Below, one piece after another: positions 5,717 to 53,445 of a DNA stretch of 64,000 nucleotides. The position numbers were made by a program, and so were the translations under genes. This DNA is from Candidatus Latescibacterota bacterium (GTDB lineage: Bacteria > Latescibacterota > UBA2968 > GCA-2709665). Numbering within the stretch: the first letter of the stretch is position 1; each line of letters opens with the position of its first letter. The stretch covers positions 3,136,001-3,200,000 of the forward strand of contig CBDCOX010000002.1 in assembly GCA_965219995.1 (NCBI GenBank), in the 5' to 3' direction. The notes below the pieces were generated by a model. That model made no database searches and was not told the origin of the DNA. It saw only the letters and a program-made list of their open reading frames with translations.

Positions 5717-5860
5717 TAAAGGCGGGGAGACGGGAGAAGTGAGACGGGAGATGATATCAGTGCCTTGTGGTATTTCTTGTTGTTACGATAACGGTAGAGA
5801 AACAGGCACGGTTAGCGCGAAAACACTGTGGTGACGTTATCATCTACCGTCTACCCTCTT
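5717..5860 (+). repeat. Heptamer-arm element (L-B-R)
   Basis: TAAAGGCGGGGAGACGGGAGAAGTGAGACGGGAGATGA, spacer B, then TCATCTACCGTCTACCCTCT. Confidence 0.9.
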
Positions 5861-5873
5861 GCCGCATTTGCCA

Positions 5874-6057
5874 GGGCGTGGGGCCTGCCAAATGCATAGC
5901 GCGAACACACTCACAGGATGCACACGATCCTCTGGCCTTACACCCGCGGAGGAAGATCAAACCACGTTGCTGGACGGATCAGCGCGCTCTGCTCTGGTAG
6001 CTCTCCGGTCAGGAAATACGTTTGTAGACCGATTGGTGTCTGGATGATGAGGACAGC
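5874..6057. repeat. ~180-bp interspersed element, copy 2
   Basis: Direct repeat of 851-1034. Confidence 0.9.
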
Positions 6058-6366
6058 GGTTAGCCATCGGCTGACAGTTGACAGCTTGGAGCGAAGAGCG
6101 AACCACTCCCAGCCCCGCAGACCTCTCCCCCCGGCCCATCAAAAGCGGTGAGAGGGTAGACGTGAGACGGGAGAAGATAATCTGCGTCGATGGGACGACG
6201 ATAAGGCCAGGCGACATGACCTCGCGGATGCGCAGACCTATCCCCCTGCCTGCCGAAAAATCACCGGCAGGCAGGACCCTTTCCTAAAGGAAAGGGTATG
6301 GAGGTTCGCGTAATGGGATCCCGGGTTCCCCCTTCCTTCAGGAAGGGGGTCAGGGGGTAGGTCTCG

Positions 6367-6630
6367 TAAAGGCGGGGAGACGGGAGACGTAAGAGGGGAG
6401 AGATTGTTCGCCCCGTGCGGTTTCACTTCTTGCCGGCGGCATAAGGGAAAAACCAATCGGGCAAGTACGTCATCTACCGTCTACCGTCTTACGTCTCACC
6501 GATTTTATTGCCCCGTGCGGGTTCACTTTTTGCCGGAGGCATAATGGAAGACCCATTCGGGCTAGGACGTCATCTACCGTCTACCGTCTCACGTCTCACC
6601 GCTTTCCTCTACCGTCTCACCGCTTTTTGG
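6367..6630 (+). repeat. Heptamer-arm element array (L-C-R-C-R)
   Basis: GAGACG(G/T) arm, two C modules (GCCCCGTGCGG...CGGGC), CCGTCTA/CGTCTCA arms; a solo L arm at ~6141-6180. Confidence 0.9.
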
Positions 6631-7074
6631 TTATTCCTTGACCACCCACACCTTGACGGTTGCGCTGACTTCGGCGTGGAGGCGGATGGAGACGTCGTAG
6701 ACCCCGAGCGCGCGGATGGGTTCGTCGAGTTCGATCCAGCGGCGGTCGATTTCGAAGCCCTGCTCGGCGAGGTGTTCGGAAATGTGCTGCCCCGTGACGG
6801 ACCCGAAGATCTGGTCTTCCTTGCCCACGGCGACCGGAATCGTGCAGGATGCCTTTTCGACCTTTTTCGAGAAGGCCACGGCCTCGCGCTGGGCGCGGGT
6901 GTCCCGGGCTTCCTTCTGGCGCTTCAGTTCCTCGTAGACCTTCATGTTCCCTTTGCTGGCCACCAGGGCGAGGTTCCGGGGGATGAGGTAATTCCTGGCG
7001 TACCCGTCCTTGACGTCAACAACTGTTCCAGCCTGGCCCAAGTTGTCGAGACCTTCGGTTAAGATTACCTTCAT
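6631..7074 (-). CDS. rplI: 50S ribosomal protein L9
   Basis: MKVILTEGLDNLGQAGTVVDVKDGYARNYLIP...IFGSVT...PIRALG; start trimmed to the ATG at 7074. Confidence 0.97.
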   Translation of the reverse strand: MKVILTEGLDNLGQAGTVVDVKDGYARNYLIPRNLALVASKGNMKVYEELKRQKEARDTRAQREAVAFSKKVEKASCTIPVAVGKEDQIFGSVTGQHISEHLAEQGFEIDRRWIELDEPIRALGVYDVSIRLHAEVSATVKVWVVKE

Positions 7075-7110
7075 GGGGGTTCCCTTTCGTTGGGCGCGAT
7101 GGCCGAATGG

Positions 7111-7661
7111 TAAAAGGCGGGGAGACGTAAGACGGGAGACGTGAGATGATGTCACCGCGACGGCCGGATTTCGATACGGACCGGCGGAATCTATCCGCGA
7201 TACGGGCGGGACCGCTCCACCCGGCCCACTACCCCGGGTGAGACGTAAGACGGGAGATGATGACCCTTCGCCCATCGGGTATCGATACGGACTCGCGATA
7301 TCTACCTCTGATGTCGAAGGCCCTACCCCCAGCCCCCAACCCCGGGGAGACGTTAGACGGGAGACGGGAGATGATATGAGTGCCCTAAAGGCGGGGAGAC
7401 GTTAGACGTGAGAAGGGAGAGATTGTCTGCCCGTTGCGGTTTCATTTCTAGCCGGAGGCATTAAGCGAGAATCAATCGGGCAAGGATTTCCTCTACCGTC
7501 TACCCTCTCACGTCTCACCGCTTTTTTCTACCGTCTTGCGTCTTACGTCTAACGGGTTTTATTGCCCCGTGTGGTTTCACATCTTGCCAGGGGCATTAAG
7601 GTAGAATCAATTTGGCAAGGATGTCATCTACCGTCTAACGTCTACCCTCTCCCCGCTTTTA
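7111..7661 (+). repeat. Heptamer-arm element array (L-D-L-D-L-L-C-R-R-C-R)
   Basis: Fills the rpsR-rplI gap; the right terminus CCCCGCTTTTA contains the rpsR stop codon. Confidence 0.9.
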
Positions 7662-7883
7662 TGACATACTATCCGTTGCAAAAGGCAACAGCGCGATCTG
7701 GCGGGCGCGCTTGAGGTGCCGGGTGACGTTGCGCTGGTGCCTGGCGCAGGTCCCGGAAACGCGCCGGGGGATGATCTTTCCCCTGTCCGTGACGAACCGC
7801 TGCATCAGCCGCACGTCCTTATAGTCGATGGTCAACGCCTTGTCTTCGCAGAACCTGCATACCTTTATGCTGGACCGGTTCAT
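7659..7883 (-). CDS. rpsR: 30S ribosomal protein S18 (Zn-binding C+ type)
   Basis: KVCRFC...IDYKDV...[18 protein letters not shown]...[11 protein letters not shown]. Confidence 0.98.
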
Positions 7884-8281
7884 TCGCCCTCCTCCTTGTC
7901 GTCGCCTTCCTCGGCGTTCTCTTCCTCGTCTTCTCCGCCTGCATCCGCTTCCGCCTCGTCCTCATCGTCCGCTTCCGGTTCTTCCTCCACCGGACTTTCG
8001 TCCACGACGACCAGGTGCCGCAGCACGGACTCGTCCAGCTTGAACATCCGGTCCACCTCGGGCAGGACCTCCGGCGGCGCCTCGAAGCGGATGAACGTGT
8101 AGTCTCCGCGCTGCTGCTTGCCAATGTCGTAGGCCAGCTTGCGCGCGCCCCAGCGGTCGACCTCCACCGAGCGGCCGCCGCCTTCGGAAACGAGGCGATC
8201 GAAACGCGCGACGAGGTCGTCCACCGCGTTATCGGGCGCCTGGGTGTTGACGATGAGTGCGAGTTCGTAACGATTCGGCAT
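7880..8281 (-). CDS. rpsF: 30S ribosomal protein S6 with long acidic tail
   Basis: RYELALIV...[12 protein letters not shown]...VLRHLVV; GGAGG RBS before the ATG at 8281. Confidence 0.96.
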
Positions 8282-8285
8282 GGAA

Positions 8286-8342
8286 CCTCCCCGTGGACTG
8301 TTGGCCCGCGAGCCGCCCGACCGGGCGTTCACGAGCGGGGCG
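8286..8342 (-). promoter_or_regulatory. Putative S6:S18 ribosomal-protein leader RNA
   Basis: Minus strand CCCCG...CGGGG stem overlapping the SD, inner stem CUCGUGA/UCGCGGG and an internal-loop CCA, immediately 5' of rpsF, matching the described S6:S18 leader architecture. Confidence 0.55.
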
Positions 8343-8363
8343 ATAAGGAAAACTGCAATCGGT

Positions 8364-8845
8364 TAAAGGCGGTGAGACGTAAGACGTAAGACGGGAGATG
8401 ATGACCCTTCGACGATCGGATTTCGATACGGACTGACGATGTCTTCCTGCGATGCCGAAGAACCTCTCCCCGCGGCCCCCTACCCCCGGGTGAGACGGGA
8501 GACGTGAGACGGGAGATGATATCAGTGCCCTATAGTTTTTCTTGTCGTTACGATTACGGCAAATAAACAGGCACGGTTTATACGGAAACACTGCTGTAAA
8601 TGTCTTCATCTACCGTCTACCGTCTCGCGTCTAACGGGTTTTCTTGCCACGTGCGGCTTCATTTTGTGCCGAAGGCACAATGGAAGACCCAATCGGGCAA
8701 AGACGTCATCTACCGTCTACCGTCTTGCGTCTAACGGGTCTTCTTGCCGCGTGCGGCTTCATTTTGTGCCGAAGGCACAATTGAAGAACCAATCGGGCAA
8801 GGATGTCTTCTACCGTCTACCGTCTACCGTCTTGCGTCTAACGGC
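8364..8845 (+). repeat. Heptamer-arm element array (L-D-L-B-R-C-R-C-R)
   Basis: Same arms and modules; C-R unit tandemly duplicated (~8640-8845). Confidence 0.9.
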
Positions 8846-8889
8846 TTCGCGAAGGGTGTATAGAAAAGGCGAAAATTGCTTTCGCGAAT

Positions 8890-10902
8890 TCAATCAACCA
8901 ACAATGGAGCCAGAACCAGCGAAACGACCGACATGAGCTTGATCAGTATGTTCAGCGAGGGGCCGGAGGTGTCCTTCAGCGGATCGCCCACGGTGTCGCC
9001 AACGACCGCGGCCTTGTGCGCATCGGACCCCTTCCCGCCGAAGTGCCCCTCTTCGATATGCTTCTTGCCGTTGTCCAGCACGCCGCCGCTGTTGGCCATC
9101 ATCAGCGCCATGAGCATGCCGCTCAACAGGGCGCCGGCGAGCATGCCGCCGAGCGCTTCCTTTCCGAGGATGAACCCGACCAGCACGGGCGTGAGCACGG
9201 CAACCACCCCGGGCGGCACCATTTCCCGCAGCGCCGCAACCGTGCTGATATCCACGCAGCGGCGGGTATCGGGCTTGCCGGTGCCCTCCATCAGGCCTGG
9301 AATCTCCCGGAACTGCCGCCGGACCTCTTCCACCATCCTGAAGGCCGCCCGGCCCACCGAAGTCATCGTCTGCGCGGCCACGAGGAAGGGGATGGATCCG
9401 CCGATGAACAGGCCGATCACCACCATCGGCGAGGTCAGGTTGATCATCTCCAGCTTCACGGTGGACGCGTAGGCCGAGAACAGGGCCAGGGCCGTGAGCG
9501 CGGCCGAACCGATGGCGAAGCCCTTGCCGATGGCCGCCGTGGTGTTGCCCAGCGCGTCCAGACCGTCCGTAATCTTCCTCGTCTCCGGTCCGAGTTCCGC
9601 CATTTCCGAAATGCCGCCCGCGTTGTCGGCGATGGGACCGTACGCGTCTACCGCCATGGTGACGCCCACGGTTGCCAGCATCCCCACGGCCGCGATGCCG
9701 ATGCCGTAGAGCCCGGCGAAGTGATAGGCGAACCCGATGGCGGCGCAGATGCACAGCACGGGAAGGAAGGTGCTCTGCATGCCGATCGCCAGGCCGGAGA
9801 TGATATTGGTGGCGGGCCCGGTTTCAGAGGACCTGGCCACCCTGCTCACCGGCGCGCCGCCGGTGTAGTATTCGGTAAGCAGGCCGATCAGAATGCCGGT
9901 GAGACCGCCCAGCAGGATCGCCCAGAACACGCCTTCGGAGAGCCCCAGGCCCTCAACCGCGAAGTAGCTCCCGGCGAACATGATCCCGGCGGCCACGAAG
10001 GAAGCGTACCGGAGGGCGGCCGCGGGGCTGAAACGCTGCAGGACGGGCATGGCGAGCACGCCGATGAGCGACGCCACGAGGCCGATGGTGGCCACGACGA
10101 GCGGCAACTGCATGGCCGCCATCTTCACGTCGGCGTCGGCGTACACGGAGCTGCCGGCCAGCGTGGCGATCAGCGCGGACCCTGCCGTGGCCGCGATGGC
10201 GATGGTGGCTACGATGGAGCCCACGTAGGACTCGAAGATATCGGCGCCCATCCCGGCCACGTCGCCCACGTTGTCGCCCACGAAATCGGCGAGCGCCGCG
10301 GGGTTGCGCGGGTCATCCTCGGGAATGCCGGCTTCGACCTTGCCGACCAGATCGGCGCCCACGTCGGCGGTCTTGGTGTAGATGCCGCCGCCCACGCGCG
10401 CGAACAGCGCGATGGAACTGGCGCCCATGGCGAACCCGTTGATGATCACCGCCTGGTCGGCGTTTCCGTACAGGAGAAAGAGCACGCCCACACCCAGCAG
10501 GCCCAGGCTGGCCACCGAGAGGCCCATGACCGTACCGCCGGAAAAAGCGACGCTCAGCGCCGTCGCCTCGCCCTCCTGGTTGGCGGCGTACGCGGTGCGC
10601 ACGTTGGCCTTGGTGGCCGCTTTCATCCCGAAAAAACCGGCGCCGATCGAACAGACCGCGCCGGCCAGAAAGGCGAAGGCCGTACTGAACGGCCGGATGC
10701 CGATCGAAAGCAGGATGAATACCGCAACGATGAATATCGCCAGCACCAGGTATTCGCGTTTCAAAAACGCCATCGCGCCTTCGTGGATGGCATCCGAAAT
10801 CTCCCGCATCCGGTCCGTTCCGGCCGGTTTACGGGTGATCCGGAAATATACCAGCCCGGCGACGAGCAACCCGGCGATTCCGAATATTGGCGTCCAGAAC
10901 AT
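8890..10902 (-). CDS. hppA: Membrane-bound K+-dependent, probably Na+-translocating pyrophosphatase
   Basis: [42 protein letters not shown]; GNTTAA (Ala = K+-dependent); DIFESY Glu at the Na+-PPase gate position. Confidence 0.95.
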
Positions 10903-10914
10903 AGAGAAACCCCC

Positions 10915-11244
10915 AAAAGGCGGTGAGACGGGAGACGGGAGACGGGAGATGATCACCCTTCGCCCATCGGATATCGATACGGACTCGCGATATCTACCTG
11001 CGATACCGAAGGAACCCTAAAAAGCGGTGAAACGGGAGATACCGTGAGCGCCCTAAAGGCGGTGAGACGGGAGACGTGAGACGTGAGATGATATCAGTGC
11101 CCCAAAGGCGGGGAGACGTTAGAGGTAAGACGGGAGATGATATGAGTGCCCGTGCGGATTCATATCTTGCCAGAGGCATTTAGCTAGAACCAATCGGGCA
11201 CGGACGTCATCTACCGTCTCCCCTCTCCCGTCTCCCCGCCTTTA
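10915..11244 (+). repeat. Heptamer-arm element array (L-D-L-L-L-C-R)
   Basis: Spans from the hppA RBS to the pth stop codon, which lies inside the terminus CCCCGCCTTTA. Confidence 0.9.
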
Positions 11245-11799
11245 TGAATTAAACCGATTCATCGCCTCGTCAATGCCGGATTCCATCCAGCATGCCGCCC
11301 CGGAGGCGGCCGCGCGGATCGCCGCGTTTACGGTGTCGCGCTCATCGTCTTCGAACGGGTTCAGGACGTGCTCGATCCGGTCCGCGCCTTCCGGCGGCGC
11401 CCCGATGCCCACCCGCAGCCGGGGAAACGCCCCGGATCCCGCGCAATCGATAATCGACGCCAGCCCGTTATGCCCCCCGTCGCTGCCGCCGCGCCGCAGC
11501 CGGATCCGGCCCAGGTCCAGGTGGACGTCGTCCACGACCACCAGGGCTTCCTCGATGCCGACTTCGAAACGATCCAGGACCTGCGCCACCGCAACGCCGC
11601 TGCGATTCATGTACGTGGTCGGCTTCACCAGCATCAGCGTCCGGTCGTCCTTCCCGATCCGGCAAAAAAAATACCAGGCGCTTTCCGACCAGGTCCCCTT
11701 CAGCCTTGACGCCAGCAGGTTCACCACCCGATAGCCCAGGTTGTGGCGGGTATGAGCGTATTCGGAACCCGGGTTGCCCAGACCCACGACAACCTTCAC
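11242..11799 (-). CDS. pth: Peptidyl-tRNA hydrolase
   Basis: VVGLGNPG..Y.HTRHNLG, KPTTYMNRSG, GGSDGGHNGL, FPRLRVGIG. Confidence 0.98.
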   Translation of the reverse strand: MKVVVGLGNPGSEYAHTRHNLGYRVVNLLASRLKGTWSESAWYFFCRIGKDDRTLMLVKPTTYMNRSGVAVAQVLDRFEVGIEEALVVVDDVHLDLGRIRLRRGGSDGGHNGLASIIDCAGSGAFPRLRVGIGAPPEGADRIEHVLNPFEDDERDTVNAAIRAAASGAACWMESGIDEAMNRFNS

Positions 11800-11809
11800 G
11801 AGAACCCCC

Positions 11810-12090
11810 TAAAAACGGTGAGACGGGAGACGGGAGATGATTACCCTTCGTCCATCGGATATCGATACGGACTCGCGATATCTACCTCTGATGTCGAAGG
11901 CCCTACCCCCAACCCCGGGGAGACGGGAGACGTGAGACGGGAGATGATGTGAATGCTCTATGGTTTTTCTAGTCGCTATGATAACGGTAAATTAGTAGGC
12001 ACGGTTTTTGTGGAAACACTGCTGTAAATGTCTTCATCTACCGTCTACTTACGTCTCACCTCTTTCAGGTTTTTCCTCTACAGTCTTACC
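11810..12090 (+). repeat. Heptamer-arm element array (L-D-L-B-R), left flank of the four-helix-bundle gene
   Basis: Near-identical to 12513-12800. Confidence 0.9.
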
Positions 12091-12094
12091 GAAG

Positions 12095-12463
12095 CTAAGA
12101 TGATACTCTGCTTATCAATCCTGACAGCAAACCAAACAATCGATTCATTGTTTTTATTATTGATTGAACGTCATCTTCCGAACACATTTGGAGGCTTAGT
12201 GCAATTTCAAGCTGAGTATCCAACTCAACCAACGAACTCCTGGCGATTTCCAGAAATCTTTTGCGTTCAGAACTCGAAGATCTCGCCGACCCTTCGGCAA
12301 TGTTGGACGGTATTGAGACAGCAGATCGTCGTAACTGGCCGGTTAGGCCATAAAGTTCGGCGGAGGGGAATTCAGCGGTCAGCGTATAAATCTCGTTGAC
12401 CAGATCAATGCTCTTTTTCCATACCACAAGCTTCTTGTGGCTGAGTTCCATCATCGCGTGCAA
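12095..12463 (-). CDS. Four-helix-bundle protein (23S rRNA-IVS / S23 / Avd-like family)
   Basis: HKKLVVWKKSIDLV.EIY.LT..FP..ELYGLTGQLRRSAVSIPSNIAEG...FLEIARSSLVELDTQLEIA signature; visibly AT-richer than its neighbours; start may be ATG 12454. Confidence 0.93.
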   Translation of the reverse strand: MHAMMELSHKKLVVWKKSIDLVNEIYTLTAEFPSAELYGLTGQLRRSAVSIPSNIAEGSARSSSSERKRFLEIARSSLVELDTQLEIALSLQMCSEDDVQSIIKTMNRLFGLLSGLISRVSS

Positions 12464-12494
12464 GCGCTATCGTTCCTCCCCGCAGCCCCCAACC

Positions 12495-12908
12495 CCGGGG
12501 AGACGGTAGACGTAAGACGGGAGATGATTACCCTTCGCCCATCGGATATCGATACGGACTCGCGATATCTACCTCTGATGTCGAAGGCCCTACCCCCAAC
12601 CCCGGGGAGACGGGAGACGTGAGACGGGAGATGATGTGAGTGCCTGAAGAGCGGGTAGACGTTAGACGGGAGACGGGAGATACCGTGAGTGCCCTATGGT
12701 TTTTCTTGATTGCTACGATAACGGTAAATTAGCAGGCACGGTTTGTGTAGAAACACTGCTGTAAATGTCTTCATCTACCGTCTACCCTCTTACGTCTCAC
12801 CGGTTCTATTGCCCCGTGTGGTTTCACATCTTGCCAGAGGCATTGAGTAAGAACCAATGGGGCAAGGATGTTATCTACCGTCTACCCTCTCACGTCTCAC
12901 CGCTCTTA
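12495..12908 (+). repeat. Heptamer-arm element array (L-D-L-L-B-R-C-R), right flank
   Basis: Terminus CACCGCTCTTA includes the rplY stop codon. Confidence 0.9.
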
Positions 12909-13592
12909 TTCTTCGTCGTCCTCGTCTTCGTCCTTCTTGCCGCGTTCGATGACTTCGGGTTCCTGCATCTCTTCTTCTTCCTCGAGCACCTCTTCCTCTT
13001 CCTCTTCGACCTGAGCGATTGAAGGCGGAACCACGACAAACACGGACCGGTCGCTCTCGGTAACGATCTCCACGTCGCCGGACACGCTCAGATCGGAGAC
13101 GTGCACCGAGTCTCCGATATTCAGATGGTTCACGTCGAACCCGATGCTTTCCGGGATCTCGGCGGGCAGACACGACACCTCCACCTGGTGCAGCAACTGC
13201 TCCAGAATACCGCCTTCCGTGCGGACGCCGGCGGGAATGCCCTGGGGTTCGACGCGAACGTCCACGACGATTTTCTGGGTGAGCGAGATCCGGTAGAAGT
13301 CCGCGTGGAGGAGATGACCGCCAACGGGGTGGTGCTGCAGCTCCTTGACGATGGCGGTGTCTTCGGATTGATCCTCGCCGTTGCCCACAACCAGGGACAG
13401 AAGCGTATTCCGGCCGTGTTCGTGCAAGACCGTTGACAACGCCTTCGCATCGACCGAACAGGCGACGGACGCGCCGCGGTCGCCATAGACCACCGCGGGA
13501 ATCCTCCCGGTACGCCGGATGCGCTTGGCCTCGCCCTTTCCGGTTCCGGAGCGTACTTCGGCCTGCAAACTTACGCCGTTATTGTCAGCCAT
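12906..13592 (-). CDS. rplY: 50S ribosomal protein L25/Ctc
   Basis: GKGEAKRIRRTGRIPAVVYG, QHHPV..HLLHADF, GVRTEGGIL, EPEVIERGKKDE. Confidence 0.97.
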   Translation of the reverse strand: MADNNGVSLQAEVRSGTGKGEAKRIRRTGRIPAVVYGDRGASVACSVDAKALSTVLHEHGRNTLLSLVVGNGEDQSEDTAIVKELQHHPVGGHLLHADFYRISLTQKIVVDVRVEPQGIPAGVRTEGGILEQLLHQVEVSCLPAEIPESIGFDVNHLNIGDSVHVSDLSVSGDVEIVTESDRSVFVVVPPSIAQVEEEEEEVLEEEEEMQEPEVIERGKKDEDEDDEE

Positions 13593-13635
13593 TGACCGAT
13601 CCTCCACATTTTTTTACCAGAACTGCGGTTTTGCA

Positions 13636-13706
13636 CTGCCGGGCAGGGATTCGAACCCCGATAAACGGCTCCAAAGGCCGCTGTCTTACCCTTAGACGAC
13701 CCGGCA
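13636..13706 (-). tRNA. tRNA-Gln(TTG), CCA not encoded
   Basis: TGCCGGGTCGTCTAAGGGTAAGACAGCGGCCTTTGGAGCCGTTTATCGGGGTTCGAATCCCTGCCCGGCAG folds as a cloverleaf; conserved position after ispE. Confidence 0.96.
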
Positions 13707-13845
13707 TCAATAACCGGAACCCGGATGCTGCGTGCGATCAGTCCGCGAGCCATCGTTGAGGCGGCAATCGACCGGGGTCGTACGTTGTTATGACTATATA
13801 TTAATGTATAAGGAACCGCAAACGGCTCGATCCGATTCCGGACGG

Positions 13846-14718
13846 CTACGGTTCGCGCGGCCGGAACCGACACAGATAGACCCGGCGCCCGCGGCCCTGC
13901 ACCAGGCCAACCACGGCCGAAGCTTGCGAGGCCTCACGAAAAACGCCGAAGAGCGTGGATCCGCTGCCCGAAACCGAACAGGCAACCGCGCCCCGGGCGT
14001 CCAGCGCCGCAAGGATCCGCGCCACGTCGCCGGCGGCGGCTTCCACGAGGGGCAGAAAGTCGTTTTCCAGGCAGGCGAACAATCGGCCGGCGCAGATCCG
14101 GCCGGATTTTTCCGCAAAGTCCAGAAATGTACCATACGCTGCTGAATCTGTCAAGCCAATTCTCACGTTTCGATAGGCCCATGCGGTGGACACGGGGAAC
14201 CCCGGATACACCAGTACATACCAGAAATCGCCCTCCCAATCCACCGGTCGGATCCGCTCTCCGCGCCCCGTTACCACGGCCGTGCCGCCGGTGAGGAAGA
14301 ACGGGACGTCGGACCCGAGTTCCGCGGCGAGCGAGGCCAATCGCTCCGGCCCCAGACACGTTCCCCACAGCCGGTCCAGCGCGCGCAGCGCCGTGGCCGC
14401 GTTGGAACTCCCGCCGCCCAGGCCCGCGCCCGCGGGAATGTGTTTGACCAGGTCCACGCGCACCCCGTTGCGTGCGCCCGTTGCCCGGCGGAGGATTTCA
14501 ACGGCGCGGTACACGAGGTTCTCCGGCCCCGCGGGAACGTCCGGACGGTCGGCGCGGACCAGGGTTTCTCCGGGCGCGGCGGGCGTGAACACCAGCCGGT
14601 CGCACAGGTCCACCGTCTGAAGCACGGAGACGATATCGTGAAAGCCGTCCGGGCGGCGGCGCAGGATCTTCAGGCCCAGATTCAGCTTCGCGGGCGAAAT
14701 TTCAACAACGCGATCCAT
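13846..14718 (-). CDS. ispE: 4-diphosphocytidyl-2-C-methyl-D-erythritol kinase
   Basis: PAKLNLGL, RRPDGFHDI, KHIPAGAGLGGGSSNAA, LGSDVPFF, SGSGSTLF. Confidence 0.97.
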   Translation of the reverse strand: MDRVVEISPAKLNLGLKILRRRPDGFHDIVSVLQTVDLCDRLVFTPAAPGETLVRADRPDVPAGPENLVYRAVEILRRATGARNGVRVDLVKHIPAGAGLGGGSSNAATALRALDRLWGTCLGPERLASLAAELGSDVPFFLTGGTAVVTGRGERIRPVDWEGDFWYVLVYPGFPVSTAWAYRNVRIGLTDSAAYGTFLDFAEKSGRICAGRLFACLENDFLPLVEAAAGDVARILAALDARGAVACSVSGSGSTLFGVFREASQASAVVGLVQGRGRRVYLCRFRPREP

Positions 14719-14730
14719 TGGGAAAACCCT

Positions 14731-15175
14731 TAAAGGCGGTGAGACGGTAGACGGGAGACGGGAGATGATGACCCTTCGCCGATCGGATGTGTCGATACGG
14801 ACTGACGATATTTTCCGGCGATAGCGAAGGACCTCTCCGCCCGGCCCCCCTCCCCTGGTGAGACGTAAGACGGGAGACGTGAGATATTGTGAGTGCCCTA
14901 AAGGCGGGTAGACGTAAGACGTGAGACGGGAGATGATATGAATGCCTGTTCGGTATCATCTCTTGCCGCAGGCAGAAAGGAAGAACCAATCGGGCAAGGA
15001 CGTCTTCTACCGTCTTGCGTCTCACGTCTCACCGCTTTCATCTACCGTCTACCGTCTTGCGTCTAACGGGTTTTATTGCCCCATGTGGTTTCACATCTTG
15101 CCAGAGGCATTGAGTAAGAACCAATGGGGCAAGGACGTCATCTACCGTCTACCCTCTTACGTCTCACCGGTTTTT
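14731..15175 (+). repeat. Heptamer-arm element array (L-D-L-L-C-R-R-C-R)
   Basis: Same arms and modules, between the ispE start and its putative promoter. Confidence 0.9.
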
Positions 15176-15182
15176 GGCGCTC

Positions 15183-15210
15183 ATGATAACCCCGGTGGTC
15201 GTTCTGTCAA
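15183..15210 (-). promoter_or_regulatory. Putative sigma70 promoter for the ispE operon
   Basis: TTGACA-N16-TATCAT on the minus strand. Confidence 0.45.
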
Positions 15211-15367
15211 GCGCCAAACGGCCGCGGGGCGGCGGGGGCGACGGGCCCGGGAGGCGGGGGCATCTGCCAAACTTGCAGTCCATCGTACCGGAGGACGTCC
15301 AACCGGAATTGCCGGGCGCCCGCCCCGAGTCAGGGCCCGCGCACGCCGGGGAAATCCAAGTTAGGGA

Positions 15368-15396: not shown

Positions 15397-15445
15397 GAAT
15401 GACGCTGCCGCACGGCGCCGCAAACACCCATAACCCCCATAAAAT

Positions 15446-20767: not shown

Positions 20768-20769
20768 AC

Positions 20770-21463
20770 AAGCGGGGAGACGTTAGACGGGAGACGGGAG
20801 ATGATCACCCTTCGCCCATCGGATATCGATACGGACTGGCGATATCTACCTGCGATACCGAAGGCCCCTCCCCGCACCCCTCGCCCCCGCAAACCTCTCC
20901 CCCCGGCCCCTCAACCCCGGGGTAGACGTAAGACGTGAGACGGGAGATACCGTGAGTGCCCTATGGTTTTTCTTGATTGCTACGATAACGGTAAAATAGC
21001 AGGCACGGTTTGTGTAGAAACACTGCTGTAAATGTCTTCATCTACCGTCTACCCTCTTACGTCTCACCGGTCTTATTGCCCGCTGTGGTTTCACTTCTTG
21101 CCGGAGGCACAAGGGTAGAACCAATTGGGCAAGGATGTCTTCTACCGTCTACCCTCTCCCGTCTCCCCGAATTTACGCAGACCTCTCCCCCCGGCCCCTC
21201 AACCCCGGGGTAGACGTAAGACGTGAGACGGGAGATACCGTGAGTGCCCTATGGTTTTTCTTGATTGCTACGATAACGGTAAAATAGCAGGCACGGTTTG
21301 TGTAGAAACACTGCTGTAAATGTCTTCATCTACCGTCTACCCTCTTACGTCTCACCGGTTTTATTGCCCGCTGTGGTTTCACTTCTTGCCGGAGGCACAA
21401 AGGTAGAACCAATCGGGCAAAGATGTCATCTGCCGTCTCACGTCTACCGTCTTACCGCTTTTT
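20770..21463 (+). repeat. Heptamer-arm element array with a 288-bp tandem duplication
   Basis: L-D-[L-B-R-C-R]x2; units start at 20893 and 21181. Confidence 0.92.
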
Positions 21464-23127: not shown

Positions 23128-23318
23128 TAAATGCGGTGAGCGGGTAGACGTGAGACGGGAGATGATGTGATCGCCCTGTGCGGGTTCAAATCTTGCCGGA
23201 GGCATTAAGCGAGAATCAATCAGGCAAAAATGTCATCTACCGTCTTCCGTCTCACGTCTTCCCGCTTTTACGCGACCTCTCCCCCCGACCCCCTCTCCCG
23301 GGGGGAGAGGGGGAGCAA
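23128..23318 (+). repeat. Heptamer-arm element (L-C-R) plus CCCCCTCTCC/GGAGAGGGGG hairpin
   Basis: Direct repeat of 24433-24617. Confidence 0.88.
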
Positions 23319-23541
23319 GACCAGGCGTAAATCAGACGTTATTGATTTCATCTCGGCCCTGACTCTCCAATACCCTTGTCCAGAGAAACCAAATCGATGA
23401 CACCGCCAGACGAATAATCCAAAAACAACCCTTGTAATTAAGGGTAGAAGCAAGGTATATTATATCGTCAGAAGATCCATTGTTGCTCTGAAGACCGATC
23501 GCCAATTACGTTTCGACAACTCTCAGCGAGGGATTCCACCA

Positions 23542-24322: not shown

Positions 24323-24432
24323 GGAAACGGTGTGATGGTGGGGCAGACATTCCTGTCTGCCCCTTTTTTGTACTTCCGCAGGAATGCAGACTGGGACGGT
24401 CGCTTCGACCTCTCCCCCCGACCCCCCTCCTC

Positions 24433-24896
24433 TGGTGAGACGTAAGACGGGAGACGTGAGAGATTGTCTGCCCGGTGCGGTTACATTTTTTGCCGGAGGC
24501 ATAAAGCGAGAATCAATCGGGCATGGACGTCATCTACCGTCTACCGTCTAACTTCTCACCGGTTTTACGCAGACCTCTCCCCCCGACCCCCTCTCCTGTG
24601 AGGAGAGGGGGAGCAAAAGGCAGCTATCGGCAATAAGCTGTCAGCATGGAGCAAACGCGTACCCATTGACGTCTGCGCCGTGATGAGGCAGGACCCTTTC
24701 CTGAAGGAAAGGGGGGTCAGAGGCGGGTAGACGTTAGACGGGAGAGATTGTCCGCCGCGTCCGGTTTCACTTCTTGCCGCAGGCATAAAGGAAGAACCAA
24801 TCGGGCAAAGGTGTCCTCTACCGTCTACCGTCTTGCGTCTCACCGCTCTCAGGTTCTTCCCTCCTCCTTCTTCCCTTTCCCGTCTTCCCGCCTTTA
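24433..24896 (+). repeat. Two heptamer-arm elements (L-C-R) plus hairpin repeats
   Basis: 24433-24567 and 24720-24896; the last terminus CCCGCCTTTA contains the stop codon of the convergent gene. Confidence 0.88.
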
Positions 24897-38085: not shown

Positions 38086-38603
38086 TGTTCGATCCGGATT
38101 CCGCGGGCCGGAAGGTCCTTACGCTGGAGCAGGCCCGGCGGGTCCGGCAGCGCCTGAAACGAAGCCGCGCCAGGCTGGTTTTCACGAACGGCTGCTTCGA
38201 CCTGATCCATCCCGGCCACGTCGCTTTCCTGCAGCGGGCCCGCTCGCTGGGCGACGCGCTCCTCCTGGGCCTCAACAGCGACGATTCCGTCCGGCGCATC
38301 AAGGGCCGGGGCCGGCCGATTCTCACGGCCGAGGAACGGACCGTCGTGCTTGCGGGCCTGGAAGCCGTGGACTATATCTGCGTGTTCGAGGAGGACACCC
38401 CGCACAATCTCGTCCGGGAACTCCTGCCCGACGTCCTCGTGAAGGGCGGGGACTATTCGCCGGACCAGATCGTCGCCCGCGAGGTGGTCGAAGACGCCGG
38501 GGGGCGCGCGGCCACCGTGTCCACCGCGTTCAACACCTCCACGTCGTCCATCATTGAACGGATAAGGCAGCGATCAGCGGTCGGCAGTCAGCAGTCAGCT
38601 TGA
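38085..38603 (+). CDS. rfaE2: Heptose-1-phosphate adenylyltransferase (RfaE domain II)
   Basis: VFTNGCFDLIHPGH, GLNSDDSVRRIKG.GRP, PDVLVKGGDY, STSSII; GTG overlaps the hisB TAG. Confidence 0.9.
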   Translation: MFDPDSAGRKVLTLEQARRVRQRLKRSRARLVFTNGCFDLIHPGHVAFLQRARSLGDALLLGLNSDDSVRRIKGRGRPILTAEERTVVLAGLEAVDYICVFEEDTPHNLVRELLPDVLVKGGDYSPDQIVAREVVEDAGGRAATVSTAFNTSTSSIIERIRQRSAVGSQQSA

Positions 38604-38637
38604 ATCAAAAGCGCCCTCACCCCCCGGACCATCAACC

Positions 38638-38902
38638 CCGGGGGAGACGTAAGACGTAAGACGTGAGAATTTGTGTGCCCCGTGTGGTTTCACATCTTTC
38701 CAGAGGCATTAAGGTAGAATCAATGGGGCAAGGATGTCATCTACCGTCTACCGTCTACCGTCTCACCGCTTTCAGGTTTGTCATCTACCGTCTACCCTCT
38801 TACGTCTCACCGAATTTACGAGACCTCTCCCCCCGGCCACTCACCCCCGGGGTAGACGCAAGACACGAGATAATATCAGTGCCCTAAAGGCGGTGAGAGA
38901 TT
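38638..38902 (+). repeat. Heptamer-arm element array (L-C-R-R, L-L)
   Basis: Same arms and C module. Confidence 0.88.
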
Positions 38903-38933
38903 TTCTCTTGAGGTTGGCGAAAACTGGTGCGCA

Positions 38934-44274: not shown

Positions 44275-44301
44275 ACCCTGGCAACCCGTTGGAGGCGAAA
44301 C

Positions 44302-46746: not shown

Positions 46747-46749
46747 TCC

Positions 46750-48195
46750 ATGGGCGGAAAGTCACCGGTCAGAAGGATCGCGGGCAACACCGCGGTCCAG
46801 GTCTTCGGACGGTCCATCGAGTTCGCGATCTTCCTGTTCCTCGCCCATTACCTGGACCTGAAGGCGTTCGGCGCGTATTCGTTCATCCTGACCAACCTCA
46901 TGTTGTGGAGCGTCCTCACGGACGCGGGCGCGTATAACGTCCTGGTCAGAGAAAGCGCGGCGGGCGGTGATCCCGATCGACTCCTGGGCAACGCCCTTTC
47001 CATCGGACTGATCGGATGCGTTGCCGCCATTCTGACGTCCAACGCCTATCTCTACCTTTCCGGCCAGGGCCCGGAAACCCTCATCCCCGCGCTCATCGCC
47101 TCGCTTACCCTGTTCGTATCGCCGCGGCTGAACGCATTTCGCAGGATGCTGCAGGTCCGGTTTCAGGCCGAACTCCAAATGGGATACGTCGTTGCGTGGA
47201 ATACCGTCTCCCACCTGCTCATGGCCGGCCTGCTGGTGGCTGTTGTCCTCAATCAGGGCTTTCTGACCGCCATCTTCTGCGCGCTCATCGCCGCCGAGCT
47301 TCTTTCATTCGCGGGCCTCTGTCTCACTCACCGGCGTCTTTTCAGTCTTCCCCGTTTCCGGTTCGACGCGCGGATCATAAGACCTCTGCTGCGGCAGAGC
47401 ATGCCGCTCATGCTGGCCGCGGTCTGTGTCGCCCTGCACGACAAAATCGGCGTCATGCTGCTCGAGTCCATCGTGAACAAGGAGGCCGTGGGCCTCTACA
47501 ACATGGCGGCGCGGATCCCGGACAGCCTGCCCTTTCTCGCTTCGATATTCATCGCCAACGTCTTCCCCGTGATGGTGAGACACAGGGAGACCGATCCGGT
47601 TGCCTTCGAGAGAATCTACCGCCGCAGCGCGCGGTACCTGATGCTCTTTATCGTCCCCGTCGCCGCCTTCTGCACCATGGCCTCGGGCGACGTCCTGAAC
47701 CTGCTGTTTCCAAACCGCATTCCGGAAGCCATGTTCGGCCACGCCAGCGGGACGCTCGTCCTGCTCATCTGGGCCATGGTCTTCAAATACATGGGCATTG
47801 CGGTCAGTTTTTTGTTCGTTGCCATCGGCGAGGAGAAACGCCGGCTCTACTGCCTGGGAGCCGCGGCGGTGCTCGGGATTCTTCTGAACATTGCGCTCAT
47901 CCCCGGCCACCACATCCTCGGATCGGCTGCGGCCGTACTGATCGGCTCCATCGCTTTCCCGGTCGCGGGGCTCTTCTTCGCACCGCTGCGAAGATACGCG
48001 GTCATGGCCGGCGCCGGCGCCGTCAAACCGCTTCTCGCGACCGTTCTGACGGCGGCCTGCGTCGCACTCGTCACCGATCACCTCGTTTTCGGCGCGATTG
48101 CGGGGGTAATCGTCTACGGCGCGCTGATCCTGCTCCTCAAAGGCGTCACGCGGGAAGACATCGCCCTGGTCAAGGAACTGAAGAAAGCGGGGTAG
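46750..48195 (+). CDS. Wzx-like oligosaccharide flippase
   Basis: Many TM helices, FGAYS, DKIGVMLL...AVGLYNMA, LNIALIP. Confidence 0.85.
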   Translation: MGGKSPVRRIAGNTAVQVFGRSIEFAIFLFLAHYLDLKAFGAYSFILTNLMLWSVLTDAGAYNVLVRESAAGGDPDRLLGNALSIGLIGCVAAILTSNAYLYLSGQGPETLIPALIASLTLFVSPRLNAFRRMLQVRFQAELQMGYVVAWNTVSHLLMAGLLVAVVLNQGFLTAIFCALIAAELLSFAGLCLTHRRLFSLPRFRFDARIIRPLLRQSMPLMLAAVCVALHDKIGVMLLESIVNKEAVGLYNMAARIPDSLPFLASIFIANVFPVMVRHRETDPVAFERIYRRSARYLMLFIVPVAAFCTMASGDVLNLLFPNRIPEAMFGHASGTLVLLIWAMVFKYMGIAVSFLFVAIGEEKRRLYCLGAAAVLGILLNIALIPGHHILGSAAAVLIGSIAFPVAGLFFAPLRRYAVMAGAGAVKPLLATVLTAACVALVTDHLVFGAIAGVIVYGALILLLKGVTREDIALVKELKKAG

Positions 48196-48496
48196 ACGGG
48201 AGACGTTAGACGGGAGATGATATCAGTGCCCAATGGAATTTCTTGTCGTTACGATAACGGTAAATTAACAGGCACGGTTTGTGTGGAAACACTGCTGTAA
48301 GTGTCTTCATCTACCGTCTACCCTCTTACGTCTCACCGCTTCTATTGCCCCGTGTGGTTTCACATCTTGCCCATGGCATTGAGTAAGAACCAATGGGGCA
48401 AGGACGTCATCTAACGTCTACCCTCTTACGTCTCACCGGTGTTAACCTCTCCCCCCGGCCCCCTCTCCCGGGGGGAGAGGGGGAGACAACCAGGAG
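48184..48496 (+). repeat. Heptamer-arm element array (L-B-R-C-R) plus hairpin
   Basis: The flippase TAG lies in the L arm; 48346-48496 is a close direct repeat of 53297-53445. Confidence 0.9.
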
Positions 48497-48651
48497 ACTT
48501 TGAAAGGATCACAGTTTCCCCCTTCCTTCAGGAAGGGGGAAAGGGGGTAGGTTGTCGGTGGGGAGGTGAGACTGTCGCATTTTGCAACACCCCCGCGCCT
48601 TGTCGATGTGCCCATCCCGTGTGTCCTTCTCACGAAAGCGGCGCAGTTCCG

Positions 48652-51600: not shown

Positions 51601-53256
51601 TCTGCATCCGACGACGGCACGGTCAAGCTGTGGGACGCCGCGTCGGGCGCCGTGACCGCCACTGTCCGAGGGGATAAATGCCGGGCTGCGTGCGTGGCTT
51701 TTTCACCGGATGGCGCCAAACTCGCTTCCGGATGGACGGATCGGACCGTCACACTATGGGACATTGCGGGGGAAAGGACAATCGCTACGTTCAGCCGCCA
51801 TCGGGACTGGCTGTCCGCGGTTGTATTTTCTCCCGACGGGAAGACGCTTGCCTCCGCATCTGAGGATGGTGAGGTCTACCTGTGGGACCTGGCAACAGGA
51901 AACGCCACCGCCGTTCCCGGCCATACGGAATCGGTCTGGGGTATGGCATTCTCGCCCGACGGTTCCACGCTGGCTTCCCGCGCCGGCACAGCCAGGGGAA
52001 AAGTCAACCTATGGGACGTTGCAACAGGCTTGAAGACCGTCACCCTGGGCGGGCATGAGGGGCCGCTCAGAACGGTTTCTTATTCTCCGGACGGGGCGAC
52101 GCTGGCGACCGGATCGCATGACCGGACGGTCAGGCTGTGGAACCTGGACAGAAACAGCACCTTCGCGACGCTCCGGCATTCGAATGAGGTATCTTCGTCA
52201 TCGTTTTCTCCAGACGGAACGACTCTCGGTACCGGGGATTCCAAAGGGAACGTCATCCTCTGGGACGTGAATACGCAGCGGCAAATCAACGCGTTCAATG
52301 TCCTGGGCGAGAGAGTCACAACGCTTGTCTTTTCGCCGGACGGCGCTACCCTGGCTGCCGGAACGTACGGCGGTGAGGTGCGGTTGTGGGACGCGGCGAC
52401 GGGTACCGCGATCCGGGATCTGGAAGGACACTCTCAGTCGGTCCTCTCCATGACCTTTTCACGGGATGGGACAACACTGGCTACCGGCTCATTCCACGAT
52501 TCCGTCAAGGTGTGGAACCTGGCGACGGGAACCGCCGGCGCCGCGTTGAAGGGAAAATGGATGGATACTGTCACATTCTCCCCCGACGGTACGATTTTCG
52601 CCACCGGTACGCAGGAAAGGCTGGCCAGGCTGTACGACATGTCGACGGGCGACGTCATCGCCAGGATTGAAGGGCACCATCACTACGTCACCAGCGTGTT
52701 GTTCACTCCGGACGGCAAGACGCTTGCAACGGGATCGCAGGATGGGACAATTCTGCTGTGGGACCTGCAACGCCTTCTATCCCGACCTCAACTGCTGAGG
52801 CCGGTCTCAGGGATCCAGCAGAAAGCGCCGGCCGGGACGGGATTGGCCCAGCCGTTCGTGGTCTCCGTTCGGGACCAGAATGGCGAACCGTATGCCGGCG
52901 CCACCGTCACCTTTGTCGTTATTGCAGGCGGCGGCACGCTGTCTGCAACCACCGACACAACCGATGCCAATGGGCAGGCCGGGACCACCCTGACGCTGGG
53001 GCGCCAGCCGGGCGCGAACATCGTCGTCGCAACGGTAGCGGATCTCGATCCGGTGACTTTTCGCGCCGTCGCCCAGGCCAATCCAGACTTCGACGGCGAC
53101 GGTACGGTTGGCTTTGGCGATTTTGTGCTGTTTGCGGGGAAGTTCGGACTGAGTCGGGACGACGACGGATTTGAAGCGCGGTACGATCTGGACGGAAACG
53201 GTACGATCGGATTCGGCGACTTTCTGATCTTCGGGAACGCCTTTGGGAGGACGTAA
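48652..53256 (+). CDS. Secreted metzincin + WD40 + Ig-like (Big_1) + dockerin-like multidomain protein
   Basis: Signal peptide; HELGHTFGLEHD plus YIMSY Met-turn; ~20 GH...AFSPDG..LAS...VRLWD repeats; two SG.nQ.G.AG..LA.P.VV.VRDQ domains; C-terminal DFDGDGTVGFGDF...DLDGNGTIGFGDF. Confidence 0.9.
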   Translation: MRNSIHRVPAVEGLSVSVFLAVALFISSASIGHASVRDGDGAPVCEPIDFSRAPLEGADVAGKRAFNLNTGDPRAVRVVYFVPADSLFRPAVEDSIRRAIRRIRTFYAEQMEAHGYGNRTFDVETGDDGAPRIHRVTGQHAEDRYAGDQRHSRVFSEIRQNFDTGANVYVAVIDYIRSPTARGGRRGKIGGEASVGGNFKWETVAHELGHTFGLEHDFRDGDYIMSYSNRQNRISACAAEFLSVNPYFNAGRSIDQAQPPSIELLSPRRYPAGSKSVLLQLRVEDPQGLHQVTLFATTSTIRPGFPRGYYEVTACRGLPNGTHAVVEFEYDGDIPSSSGSALPDTVAHPLHVKAVDKDGNVGRLSLDLVEISAHHVAALEGHRDRVESLAFSPDGSILASGSSDDAARLWDVAGREQLATLRQAGRIKSVSISPDGKTLASSSDDHTVKLWDLIERELISVLRGHKSPVNGVAFSPDGNLLASASDDHSVRLWDVAEREHTATLEGHASPVNGVAFSPDGNLLASASNDHSVRLWDVAEREQTAMLEGHASPVNGVAFSPDGNLLASASDDHSVRLWDIAKREHAATLEGHASPVNGVAFSPDGNLLASASDDRTVRLRDVAKREQLAILPHTDAFASVVFSPDGTILAAGSVTVELWETSGWRLPRAASLTTVSGDNQKGAAGDALANPLVVEVRDQYDQPLAGAQVTFTVIGGDGSVGSGFTTVTATAGPDGRAQIVLTLGPNPGKNTVEASIVGFEVQTFNAVGVGTPPVPGADRNYPTQHLPKNAIVRLGKGAIGRTDRAIGFSPDGKRFAVSSGVGVWLYSVDDLERVALLPSGIVQSLAFSSDGATIAAGGSWREHAEVRLWDAATGTNTATVDFESWGTIYLSLSPDGQTFAYPAGEGVIHRLDAATGRSAPPLEGDWSVGPSMSFSPDSTTIAVAHEDGTITLWDLAVPANSLTLEGHRREVVSVAFSPDGRALASASDDGTVKLWDAASGAVTATVRGDKCRAACVAFSPDGAKLASGWTDRTVTLWDIAGERTIATFSRHRDWLSAVVFSPDGKTLASASEDGEVYLWDLATGNATAVPGHTESVWGMAFSPDGSTLASRAGTARGKVNLWDVATGLKTVTLGGHEGPLRTVSYSPDGATLATGSHDRTVRLWNLDRNSTFATLRHSNEVSSSSFSPDGTTLGTGDSKGNVILWDVNTQRQINAFNVLGERVTTLVFSPDGATLAAGTYGGEVRLWDAATGTAIRDLEGHSQSVLSMTFSRDGTTLATGSFHDSVKVWNLATGTAGAALKGKWMDTVTFSPDGTIFATGTQERLARLYDMSTGDVIARIEGHHHYVTSVLFTPDGKTLATGSQDGTILLWDLQRLLSRPQLLRPVSGIQQKAPAGTGLAQPFVVSVRDQNGEPYAGATVTFVVIAGGGTLSATTDTTDANGQAGTTLTLGRQPGANIVVATVADLDPVTFRAVAQANPDFDGDGTVGFGDFVLFAGKFGLSRDDDGFEARYDLDGNGTIGFGDFLIFGNAFGRT
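50041..50531 (+). repeat. Four near-identical 126-bp WD40-coding tandem repeats
   Basis: Units start at 50041, 50167, 50293 and 50419. Confidence 0.92.
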
Positions 53257-53445
53257 AATGCGGTGAGAGGGGAGACGGGAGACGGGAGATATTGTGTGCC
53301 CCGTGTGGTTTCACATCTTGCCCAAGGCATTGAGTAAGAACCAATGGGGCAAGGACGTCATCTAACGTCTACCGTCTACCGTCTCACCGGTGTTAACCTC
53401 TCCACCCAGCCCCCTCTCCCGGGGGGAGAGGGGGAGACAACCAGG
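53254..53445 (+). repeat. Heptamer-arm element (L-C-R) plus hairpin
   Basis: Begins with the WD40-gene TAA (TAAAATGCGGTGAGA). Confidence 0.9.

Follow-up and report, generated by a model that had tools for sequence, protein, structure and literature searches.

Open reading frame (ORF)-bearing intervening sequences (IVSs) of 23S rRNA, which carry an S23p/PF05635 gene, are found in Leptospira as well as in Coxiella burnetii. As described by Warrier et al. (2016, PMC4990558), the Coxiella IVS is a selfish element of unexplained origin with a 28-bp terminal stem; two to three tandem heptamers (GACAGAT), whose number varies between strains, precede its S23p ORF, and excision by RNase III starts at the first repeat. 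Heptamers also form intergenic arrays in other bacteria. Rehm et al. (2015, PMC4692102) describe about 190 GGGAATC heptamer arrays in Xanthomonas, with 70-75 convergent inverted pairs per genome, and present these and the GGGGAYT repeats of Nostoc as variable-copy simple repeats studied as G-quadruplex formers, and MacGregor (2015, PMC4679880) reports intergenic TAACTGA direct repeats in marine Beggiatoaceae, Cyanobacteria and Bacteroidetes. Bacterial interspersed mosaic elements (BIMEs) and REP doublets forming hairpins (REPINs) are, in the account of Bertels and Rainey (2011, PMC3116915), mosaics of repetitive extragenic palindromic (REP) units with REP-associated tyrosine transposases (RAYTs), the hairpin doublets being the proposed replicating unit. 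Here we describe a family of heptamer-armed hairpin repeats in a 64,000-nt window (the whole stretch analyzed, G000:C2:3136001-3200000) of the genome of an uncultured marine Candidatus Latescibacterota bacterium (G000, assembly GCA_965219995.1; 5.44 Mb, 60.7% G+C, two contigs, 98.6% complete). The family probably consists of gene-less descendants of an IVS-like cassette whose full form carries a PF05635 gene.

The family is real, modular and far above chance. Searching the window for two consecutive GAGACGK heptamers, with one mismatch allowed, yielded 56 double-heptamer arm matches against 0.13 expected, and none of the 100 shuffles that served as a control reached 56. The left (L) and right (R) arms proposed in an initial annotation of the sequence are thus borne out. 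That annotation had counted about 16 loci; the clusters exist, and direct reading of the sequence gives 14 of them, within positions 5717-53390. Across the whole genome, a loose arm pattern matched at 324 loci, with 325 + 320 runs of arms. The purine-strand arms of a locus come before its pyrimidine-strand arms, the exceptions being a few compound loci of two adjacent elements. Of the 321 genomic spacers between neighboring arms, 147 lead from L to R, and their lengths are discrete, at 66-70 nt (module C) and 86-90 nt (module B); like arms are separated by about 73 nt (C between R arms) or 22 nt (the L-L junction). Profile searches of the genome (nhmmer, E<=1e-3) detected 71 copies of B, 186 of C and 23 of a third module, D (7, 18 and 8 in the window), distributed over the two strands as 36/35, 99/87 and 16/7, respectively. 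The three interchangeable spacers of the initial annotation therefore stand, as does its array grammar: [L-D]n-L-(B or C)-R-[C-R]n, mirrored on the minus strand, fits the 180 clusters with at least one module, only one of which is of mixed orientation.

Each arm comprises a head, TAAARGCGG, and four tandem heptamers (28 nt), namely three of AGACG plus two variable bases and an inner GAGATGA. Exactly three AGACG pentamers are found per arm, in 7-nt phase, and the pentamer is nearly invariant while the two intervening bases vary. The L and R arms represent two fixed "dialects", which places one mismatch in the stem every 7 nt. At the innermost heptamer junction, L has G (93%) and the reverse complement of R has T (88%), and a Watson-Crick pair is possible there in 9% of 100 elements, which is the recurrent G/A mismatch recognized earlier. 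Complete units are small and non-coding, measure 140-160 nt and occur in many copies with imperfect inverted 28-nt arms; C and B share their first ~28 nt, and the L-L tandem unit is 49 bp long according to the Tandem Repeats Finder (TRF). The number of heptamers is fixed at 3+1 in the elements of G000 and varies up to about 30 units in other genomes. Overall, this is a dispersed, modular, non-coding repeat family, as had been supposed, and it contains neither a GTAG-type REP motif nor CRISPR-type unique spacers.

The concern that the arrays might be assembly artifacts can be ruled out. The genome is assembled in two contigs, and the family also occurs in relatives whose assemblies consist of a single contig. 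Window positions 7622-8513 and 12881-14880 are moreover spanned, with 6 and 26 differences, respectively, by contigs that another study obtained in an independent DNA run. Near-identical DNA is present in runs labeled sponge, coral and marine metagenome. In the one sponge metagenome DNA run that was compared with the window, 109 of 610 pieces were at least 99% alike; three RNA runs and one DNA run, all as assembled contigs, were mostly 90-95% alike, the contigs breaking at element borders.

The evidence that carries our interpretation is the link to PF05635, the "23S rRNA intervening-sequence protein" family of small four-helix bundles. The host genome contains three PF05635 genes, each flanked by tandem heptamers of a different word, and the gene in the window is the only copy of clade I found there. 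Across the genus, 31 PF05635 matches were detected in 13 of 15 genomes. Modules B, C or D lie within 450 nt of eight of the 30 PF05635 loci retrieved, and these eight are exactly clade I: the window gene and seven proteins of relatives, 84-90% identical to it. The remaining 17 aligned PF05635 proteins are at most 45% identical to the window protein, and five partial loci were left unaligned. The association with the modules is thus 8/8 for clade I versus 0/22 for other PF05635 genes. Similarly, other clades adjoin other heptamers: AATTCTT at 4/4 loci, and GAAGAAG/TTCCTTT types at 3/6 aligned loci, as scored by a strict period-7 detector (13/14 matches at lag 7). Because this detector overlooks arms with variable dinucleotides, its tallies of loci with arms on both sides (2/30) and with inverted arms (0/30) are too low and were set aside.

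The arrangement around clade I genes is also specific. A reversed B starts 11-13 nt past the PF05635 match in five of the 30 genus loci, those of five relatives, and 89 nt past it in G000. When the L arm and B of four gene-less window units were aligned with the 3' flank of the genes of six relatives, 45 of 196 columns were invariant, and the homology stopped where gene-bearing copies enter the last codons of the gene and gene-less copies enter the R arm. In three relatives (G011, G014 and G006) a clade I gene sits between rpsR and rplI, where G000 has L-D-L, modules only; D takes the position held by B and the gene in relatives. The only gene-bearing relative of the family carries PF05635, not a known transposase, and G000 itself has a single clade I gene against about 280 gene-less modules. 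Considering these observations, we judge that the family probably represents gene-less (miniature) descendants of an IVS-like hairpin cassette whose full form carries a PF05635 gene. B would be the 3' untranslated flank of this cassette, whose design would be that of the ORF-bearing 23S rRNA IVSs, here placed between ordinary genes. The initial annotation could not assign the element to any named class. This no longer holds, as the arms are intergenic heptamer repeats of the kind described in PMC4692102, and B with its L arm is homologous to the 3' flank of the PF05635 cassette.

Several observations weigh against this interpretation. G010 and G001, two relatives whose syntenic flanking genes are about 90% identical in DNA to those of the window, both hold many copies, yet no clade I gene was detected in either; copies can thus persist without the gene. 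The G000 gene is not enclosed by an L-B-R hairpin and is separated from B by an R-type arm. Where relatives carry the gene, its two neighboring arms form a direct repeat and not an inverted one. The homology of C and D to the cassette consists of short stretches judged by eye. To our knowledge, PF05635 has no established enzymatic or mobility function, and transcription, RNase III cutting and movement of the family rest on inference. Three of the 116 cross-phylum loci listed for the arm pattern (see below) have a PF05635 fragment within 200 nt (Pfam 36-57 bits, cut-off 33.8). The 23S rRNA gene of G000 is without such arms, showing no tandem repeat, only chance arm matches and no PF05635 match; it spans 3709 nt against a 2925-position model, with about 780 extra nt. 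Covariation is absent from the C stem: over the 22 pairs predicted by folding the consensus, 154 distinct C copies were paired at 0.838 versus 0.837 ± 0.002 after shuffling, with 31 compensatory cells versus 28.7 ± 5.1, and RNAalifold returned no consensus structure from the same copies. The arms of one element are not more complementary to each other than arms taken across elements (0.659 versus 0.677 ± 0.0045).

Comparing copies with one another indicated how the family has spread. Median identity to the nearest neighbor is 89% for C and 92% for B, and a partner at 95% or more exists for 19 of 157 C units and 18 of 64 B units. This neighbor is more than 1 kb distant for 150 of the C units and 62 of the B units. 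Alignments between distant copies begin at the head, (C)TAAAGGCGG, and end at the tail, CACCGCCTTTA; because they run from head to tail, the dispersed unit is the whole L-X-R. Units of 150-160 nt recur at distant, unrelated loci with 93-96% identity and sharp ends. Tandem duplication operates on C+R (100 bp), L+D (~110 bp) and L with the start of B (49 bp), and local tandem copies are 88-96% alike, the 100-bp C+R at 88-92% and a 288-bp unit at 96% (TRF). Spread would then combine dispersal of whole units with local tandem duplication.

Relatives provide a view of the timing. Among 11 module-bearing gaps of the window, a recognizable B, C or D was found in six in G010 and in one in G001; two of these gaps, which flank a WD40-repeat gene, were compared with a single interval of each relative, leaving five distinct G010 intervals. 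At the junction 38560-38923, the genes overlap by ATGA in G010, and G001 has a different insert with a different breakpoint. Judging from these comparisons, gain in the G000 lineage looks recent. At other sites, a single unpaired L arm in G000 corresponds to L-C-R or a tandem pair in relatives. The claim that the element is "actively amplifying" is accordingly upheld in part: the recent-looking gain, the site empty in G010 and the tandem copies support it, and the moderate identity of copies and the scarcity of close partners speak against it.

Consistent with the earlier observation that the element has no transposase of its own, we found no multi-copy insertion sequence (IS) with these ends. 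The multi-copy IS families of G000, one IS1380-like (DDE_Tnp_1_4; five copies, 95-100% identity) and one IS630-like (DDE_3 + HTH; four full copies and one partial), have ends unrelated to the family arms. PF01797 (Y1 transposase/RAYT) has no match in G000, although a control search matched 6 of 14 reference genomes, and neither does PF07282, whose control search likewise gave matches; a system of the IS200/IS605 type is thereby rejected as well. These two are the transposase families that were searched genome-wide by profile. No target duplication beyond head and tail was detected in eight pairs of recent copies, a comparison that a palindromic TA duplication would escape, and the end profiles of 40 clusters showed only the inverted TAAARGCGG and no target duplication. 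An origin as a miniature inverted-repeat transposable element (MITE) of a DDE transposon was rejected, as no target duplication was seen and no transposase-coding parent with the same ends was found. Assignment to the RAYT-associated REPs, BIMEs or REPINs was rejected for want of a PF01797 gene in G000 and of a GTAG head.

These results bear on the alternative that best survives, namely that the repeats are a MITE- or BIME-like family in their own right, mobilized by a recombinase of the host or by some other one, and that PF05635 genes are separate selfish cassettes that prefer heptamer arrays. We regard this as unlikely, even though G010 and G001 hold many copies without a clade I gene having been found there, and the window gene is low in G+C, has no counterpart at the corresponding site of either relative (the matching gap is 231 bp in G001 and 655 bp in G010) and lies between arrays, not within one hairpin. 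The mosaic grammar is also BIME-like, as far as BIMEs are described in PMC3116915. However, such independence does not account for the fixed 11-13 nt between B and the 3' end of the gene in five relatives, for the clade-specific association, or for the heptamer units that other PF05635 clades have of their own, and it lacks an enzyme candidate, since PF01797 and PF07282 are absent and both multi-copy IS families have unrelated ends.

If the family does descend from a PF05635 cassette, its units may be copied to new stop-codon-proximal sites by a mechanism that recognizes the heptamer arms. Recombination or template switching between arms would be the most likely copying route, and the PF05635 protein could have a role in it. 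In transcribed copies, long stems with bulges would be expected to form and to be cleaved by RNase III, as true IVSs are; G000 has an RNase III gene, at G000:C2:4745355-4745744. Extending this further, the PF05635 protein could be the sequence-specific partner of its own heptamer "dialect". Armed cassettes could then form an unrecognized, phylum-spanning mobile class that inserts near stop codons without a classical transposase, with the 23S IVSs as a special case and the repeats of this genus as non-autonomous offspring. We put this extension forward tentatively, as a possibility less likely to be true than false.

Examining genomic placement revealed that all examined copies lie between protein-coding genes. 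The 179 clusters classified by gap type occupy 113 tandem, 24 convergent and 42 divergent gaps, and in tandem gaps 60 elements are co-directional with the genes and 53 opposite, indicating no transcription-orientation bias. No replication-strand bias was detected either, with 61 plus and 56 minus copies between the GC-skew extremes and 37 plus and 25 minus outside them. Genome-wide, the first heptamer most often lies 7 nt from a stop codon; genes were called with a crude codon-usage model (3879 genes) whose starts are unreliable, and only stop-codon distances were interpreted. In most loci of the genus, the rpsR stop codon forms the first three bases of the arm head; in the window, this codon (7659-7661, minus strand) coincides with the final three bases of the TAAAAGCGG head of the outermost arm. 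All 33 B, C and D modules of the window share one orientation, against about 50/50 genome-wide, and the neighboring genes lie on both strands. D modules and element density are highest at 3.0-4.2 Mb, beside the cumulative GC-skew minimum at 3.96 Mb. The uniform orientation, together with the concentration of D around the window, suggests regional copying.

The family was found in all 14 same-genus genomes searched and was not found in seven genomes of four other genera of the same taxonomic family. In a second taxonomic family of the same order the arm part alone is matched, either by simple GAGACGK arrays that reach ~30 units or by minimal hairpins of arm, loop and arm that follow a stop codon. 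A 25-nt arm pattern, for which we estimate a chance expectation far below one match, occurs at no fewer than 116 loci in Bacteroidota, Gemmatimonadota, Acidobacteriota, Planctomycetota, Proteobacteria and others. Because the arm pattern spans phyla, the heptamer word is old or widely shared, and the B, C and D loops are genus-specific. The gap between rpsR and rplI illustrates the difference: it measures ~6-140 bp in those loci of other genera, 15 of 17, in which both genes are seen, versus ~185-1100 bp in all 13 loci of the genus, each of which holds a different module mix. Similarly, the sites orthologous to the array at 20768..21459 all differ in content. At orthologous sites, occupancy is conserved and content turns over quickly between species. 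Some relatives have CTTCCTT/GAAGGAA or AAGAATT arrays in place of the AGACGNN arms, with site and 7-nt period unchanged (L011 8800-8960; directly after rpsR in L017, L018, L022 and L024). These are the words that flank other PF05635 clades.

The elements fold strongly in prediction. An L-C-R unit reaches -57 kcal/mol (z = -3.5 and -3.9 on the two strands), and the whole 561-nt rpsR-rplI spacer, as operon-sense RNA, -232.6 versus -194.9 ± 7.3 kcal/mol (z = -5.1), in a single nested hairpin that brings the rpsR stop and the rplI leader together at its base. Speculatively, ring-shaped RNA-binding proteins such as HutP or TRAP could read the NAG-N4 period. A structured non-coding RNA family was nevertheless rejected, as compensatory changes are missing and Rfam, searched at gathering thresholds, matched a tRNA alone in the window. 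An intrinsic terminator was rejected on the basis of a terminator scan of positions 5600-15200, in which none of 10 terminator-like sites was an element and the count matched the shuffle mean of 8.8, and of the equal frequency of both orientations.

It appears improbable, accordingly, that the elements are host-selected RNA or DNA signals (RNase III sites, mRNA stabilizers or attenuators) that regulate neighboring, often highly expressed genes. Their position directly after stop codons at operon junctions of ribosomal-protein and housekeeping genes, the occupancy of the rpsR site across the genus, the strong folds and the ~98% conservation of some core positions would all suit such signals. 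Yet transcription orientation is unbiased over the 113 tandem contexts, neither the C stems nor the arms covary, site contents vary freely between species, Rfam has no match, the simple scan calls no element a terminator, and the same junctions in other genera are without elements. Plain heptamer microsatellites that arise by replication slippage, their shared spacers spread by homologous recombination alone and without mobility, are very improbable: variable-length GAGACGK arrays without B, C or D in another family of the order and in many phyla, units that mutate to GAAGGAA or AAGAATT arrays in relatives, and the finding that no long simple repeat is commoner in prokaryotes than heptamers (Mrazek 2007, cited by PMC4679880) fit such an origin, but the fixed 3+1 copy number with two fixed dialects in G000, the sharp-ended 150-160-nt units at distant loci and the independent insertions at a junction empty in G010 do not.

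The clusters of the window and the other features located in this work are collected in Table 1.

Table 1. Clusters of the hairpin family and other features; positions refer to the window unless a contig is given.
Feature	Position	Strand	Basis
L-B-R unit: head TAAAGGCGG, L arm, B spacer, R arm	5717..5862	+	sequence and module matches; fold z = -2.3 (+ strand), -4.2 (- strand)
Solo L-type arm CAAAAGCGGTGAGAGGGTAGACGTGAGACGGGAGAAGA, unpaired	6130..6175	+	arm search and sequence
L-C-R-C-R array right downstream of rplI, then a short extra R fragment	6366..6623	+	TRF period 100, 2.0 copies, 88% matches; L-C-R fold -57 kcal/mol, z = -3.5
L-D-L-D-L-L-C-R-R-C-R array filling the rpsR-rplI gap	7112..7661	+	sequence
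L-D-L-B-R-C-R-C-R array upstream of rpsF	8364..8845	+	TRF period 100, 2.3 copies, 92% matches
L-D-(L fragment)-L-L-C-R array between H+-pyrophosphatase gene and pth	10915..11245	+	TRF 49-bp L-L unit, 2.1 copies
L-D-L-B-R array between pth and PF05635 gene	11810..12064	+	sequence and modules
PF05635 gene, clade I, low G+C, between two family arrays	12095..12460	-	Pfam 125.3 bits
L-D-L-L-B-R-C-R array between PF05635 gene and L25 gene	12470..12905	+	sequence
L-D-L-L-C-R-R-C-R array between ispE and TPR gene	14733..15172	+	sequence and modules
L-D-(L-B-R-C-R)x2 array; stop codon of upstream gene abuts head	20768..21459	+	TRF period 288, 2.0 copies, 96% matches
L-C-R unit	23128..23273	+	sequence and modules
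L-C-R unit	24430..24568	+	sequence and modules
L-C-R-R and truncated L-B start, inserted at gene junction	38630..38895	+	comparison with G010 and G001
L-B-R-C-R array; TAG stop of upstream gene within first heptamer	48185..48440	+	sequence
L-C-R unit after WD40 gene; C-R part and tail duplicate the sequence preceding the WD40 gene	53258..53390	+	sequence
Adjoining non-family repeat modules	520-727, 5640-5716, 6095-6140, 23273-23320, 24405-24430, 24568-24615, 38567-38640		
WD40-repeat gene, 1605 aa	48439-53253	+	
Tyrosine recombinase gene	28476-29543	-	Phage_integrase and SAM-like N-terminal domain
IS1380-like element	G000:C2:648254-649815		DDE_Tnp_1_4
IS630-like element	G000:C2:972272-973435		DDE_3 + HTH
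23S rRNA gene	G000:C2:450013-453721		

Other repeats adjoin the family. Runs of the heptamer CAGCRRT and of the octamer ACACRRAG, a AAATCAAATTCAAAATCCCCTTTTCCCCAAATTCCC leader that precedes some L heads, and a GCAGACCTCTCCCCCCGRCCCC...GGGGGGAGAGGGGGAG hairpin beside the family all recur in G010 and G001. At the syntenic site, the WD40-repeat gene is missing both from G001, which has a 137-bp gap, and from G010, which has 1611 bp of repeats. In G000 the gene is bracketed by a duplicated stretch consisting of C-R followed by CACCGGTGTTAACCTCTCC...CCCCCTCTCCCG, and it looks as if the gene and one L-C-R unit had been inserted into a CCTCTCCCC...GGGGAGAGG hairpin module. The window also encodes a tyrosine recombinase, probably of the XerC/D housekeeping type, for which no link to the repeats was seen.

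The family bears on three puzzles: the origin and spread of 23S IVSs, the function of the very common PF05635 genes, and the rank of tandem heptamers as the most frequent long simple repeat of bacterial intergenic DNA. This genus offers an unusually clean handle on them, as a single heptamer word and hundreds of modular gene-less copies go with one PF05635 clade. The arrays also have consequences for gene calling and assembly, since they provide stop codons and lengthen operon junctions, rpsR-rplI among them, by as much as ~1 kb.

How does the family compare with known systems? Literature searches by sequence words returned primers and unrelated matches only; among papers found by topic, none but the Coxiella description connects PF05635 cassettes with heptamer hairpins between genes. 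The pneumococcal BOX elements (boxA-boxB(n)-boxC) and the neisserial Correia elements are modular or inverted-repeat miniatures, often co-transcribed and forming long hairpins, and Correia elements generate a TA duplication. The modular, inverted-repeat hairpin design is shared, whereas sequences and hosts differ and no target duplication was seen in our family. With BIMEs and REPINs, the family has in common hundreds of extragenic palindromic units, fixed linkers, a mosaic grammar and tandem clusters, as far as those elements are described in the source cited above. A GTAG-type head is the defining trait of REPs; in contrast, our family has TAAARGCGG heads, and its arms are tandem heptamers.

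Cyanobacterial short tandemly repeated repetitive (STRR) heptamers are comparable intergenic heptamer arrays. The TAACTGA repeats resemble the family in that a heptamer word common to distant phyla forms intergenic tandem arrays of unknown function, including in ribosomal-protein operons. They differ in being mostly direct repeats right upstream of start codons, and the account available to us does not describe paired arms or conserved loops for them. Closer still are the Xanthomonas and Nostoc repeats, with intergenic head-to-tail 7-nt units near ORF ends, convergent pairs, no replication-strand bias, and the same sites occupied in related species with varying length and sequence. The arms thus belong to a described class of intergenic tandem heptamer repeats in inverted pairs (PMC4692102), although the available text of that source describes no multi-copy loop modules, no array grammar and no link to PF05635.

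The ORF-bearing 23S IVSs, as far as the Coxiella element is described, match the family in their inverted ends and in a stem of ~28 bp that contains tandem heptamers, of which the family has four per arm. A PF05635 ORF is likewise present in full copies, and in relatives B and the L arm directly follow the clade I gene. The differences are that the family lies between protein-coding genes and not in the 23S rRNA gene (helix 25 or 45), that its copies number in the hundreds, are mostly gene-less, have conserved loop modules and form tandem arrays, that its heptamer is AGACGNN and not GACAGAT, and that RNase III excision, described for the Coxiella IVS, is here inferred. Overall, the family is best viewed as an unusually prolific and modular variant of heptamer-armed, intervening-sequence-like hairpin cassettes.

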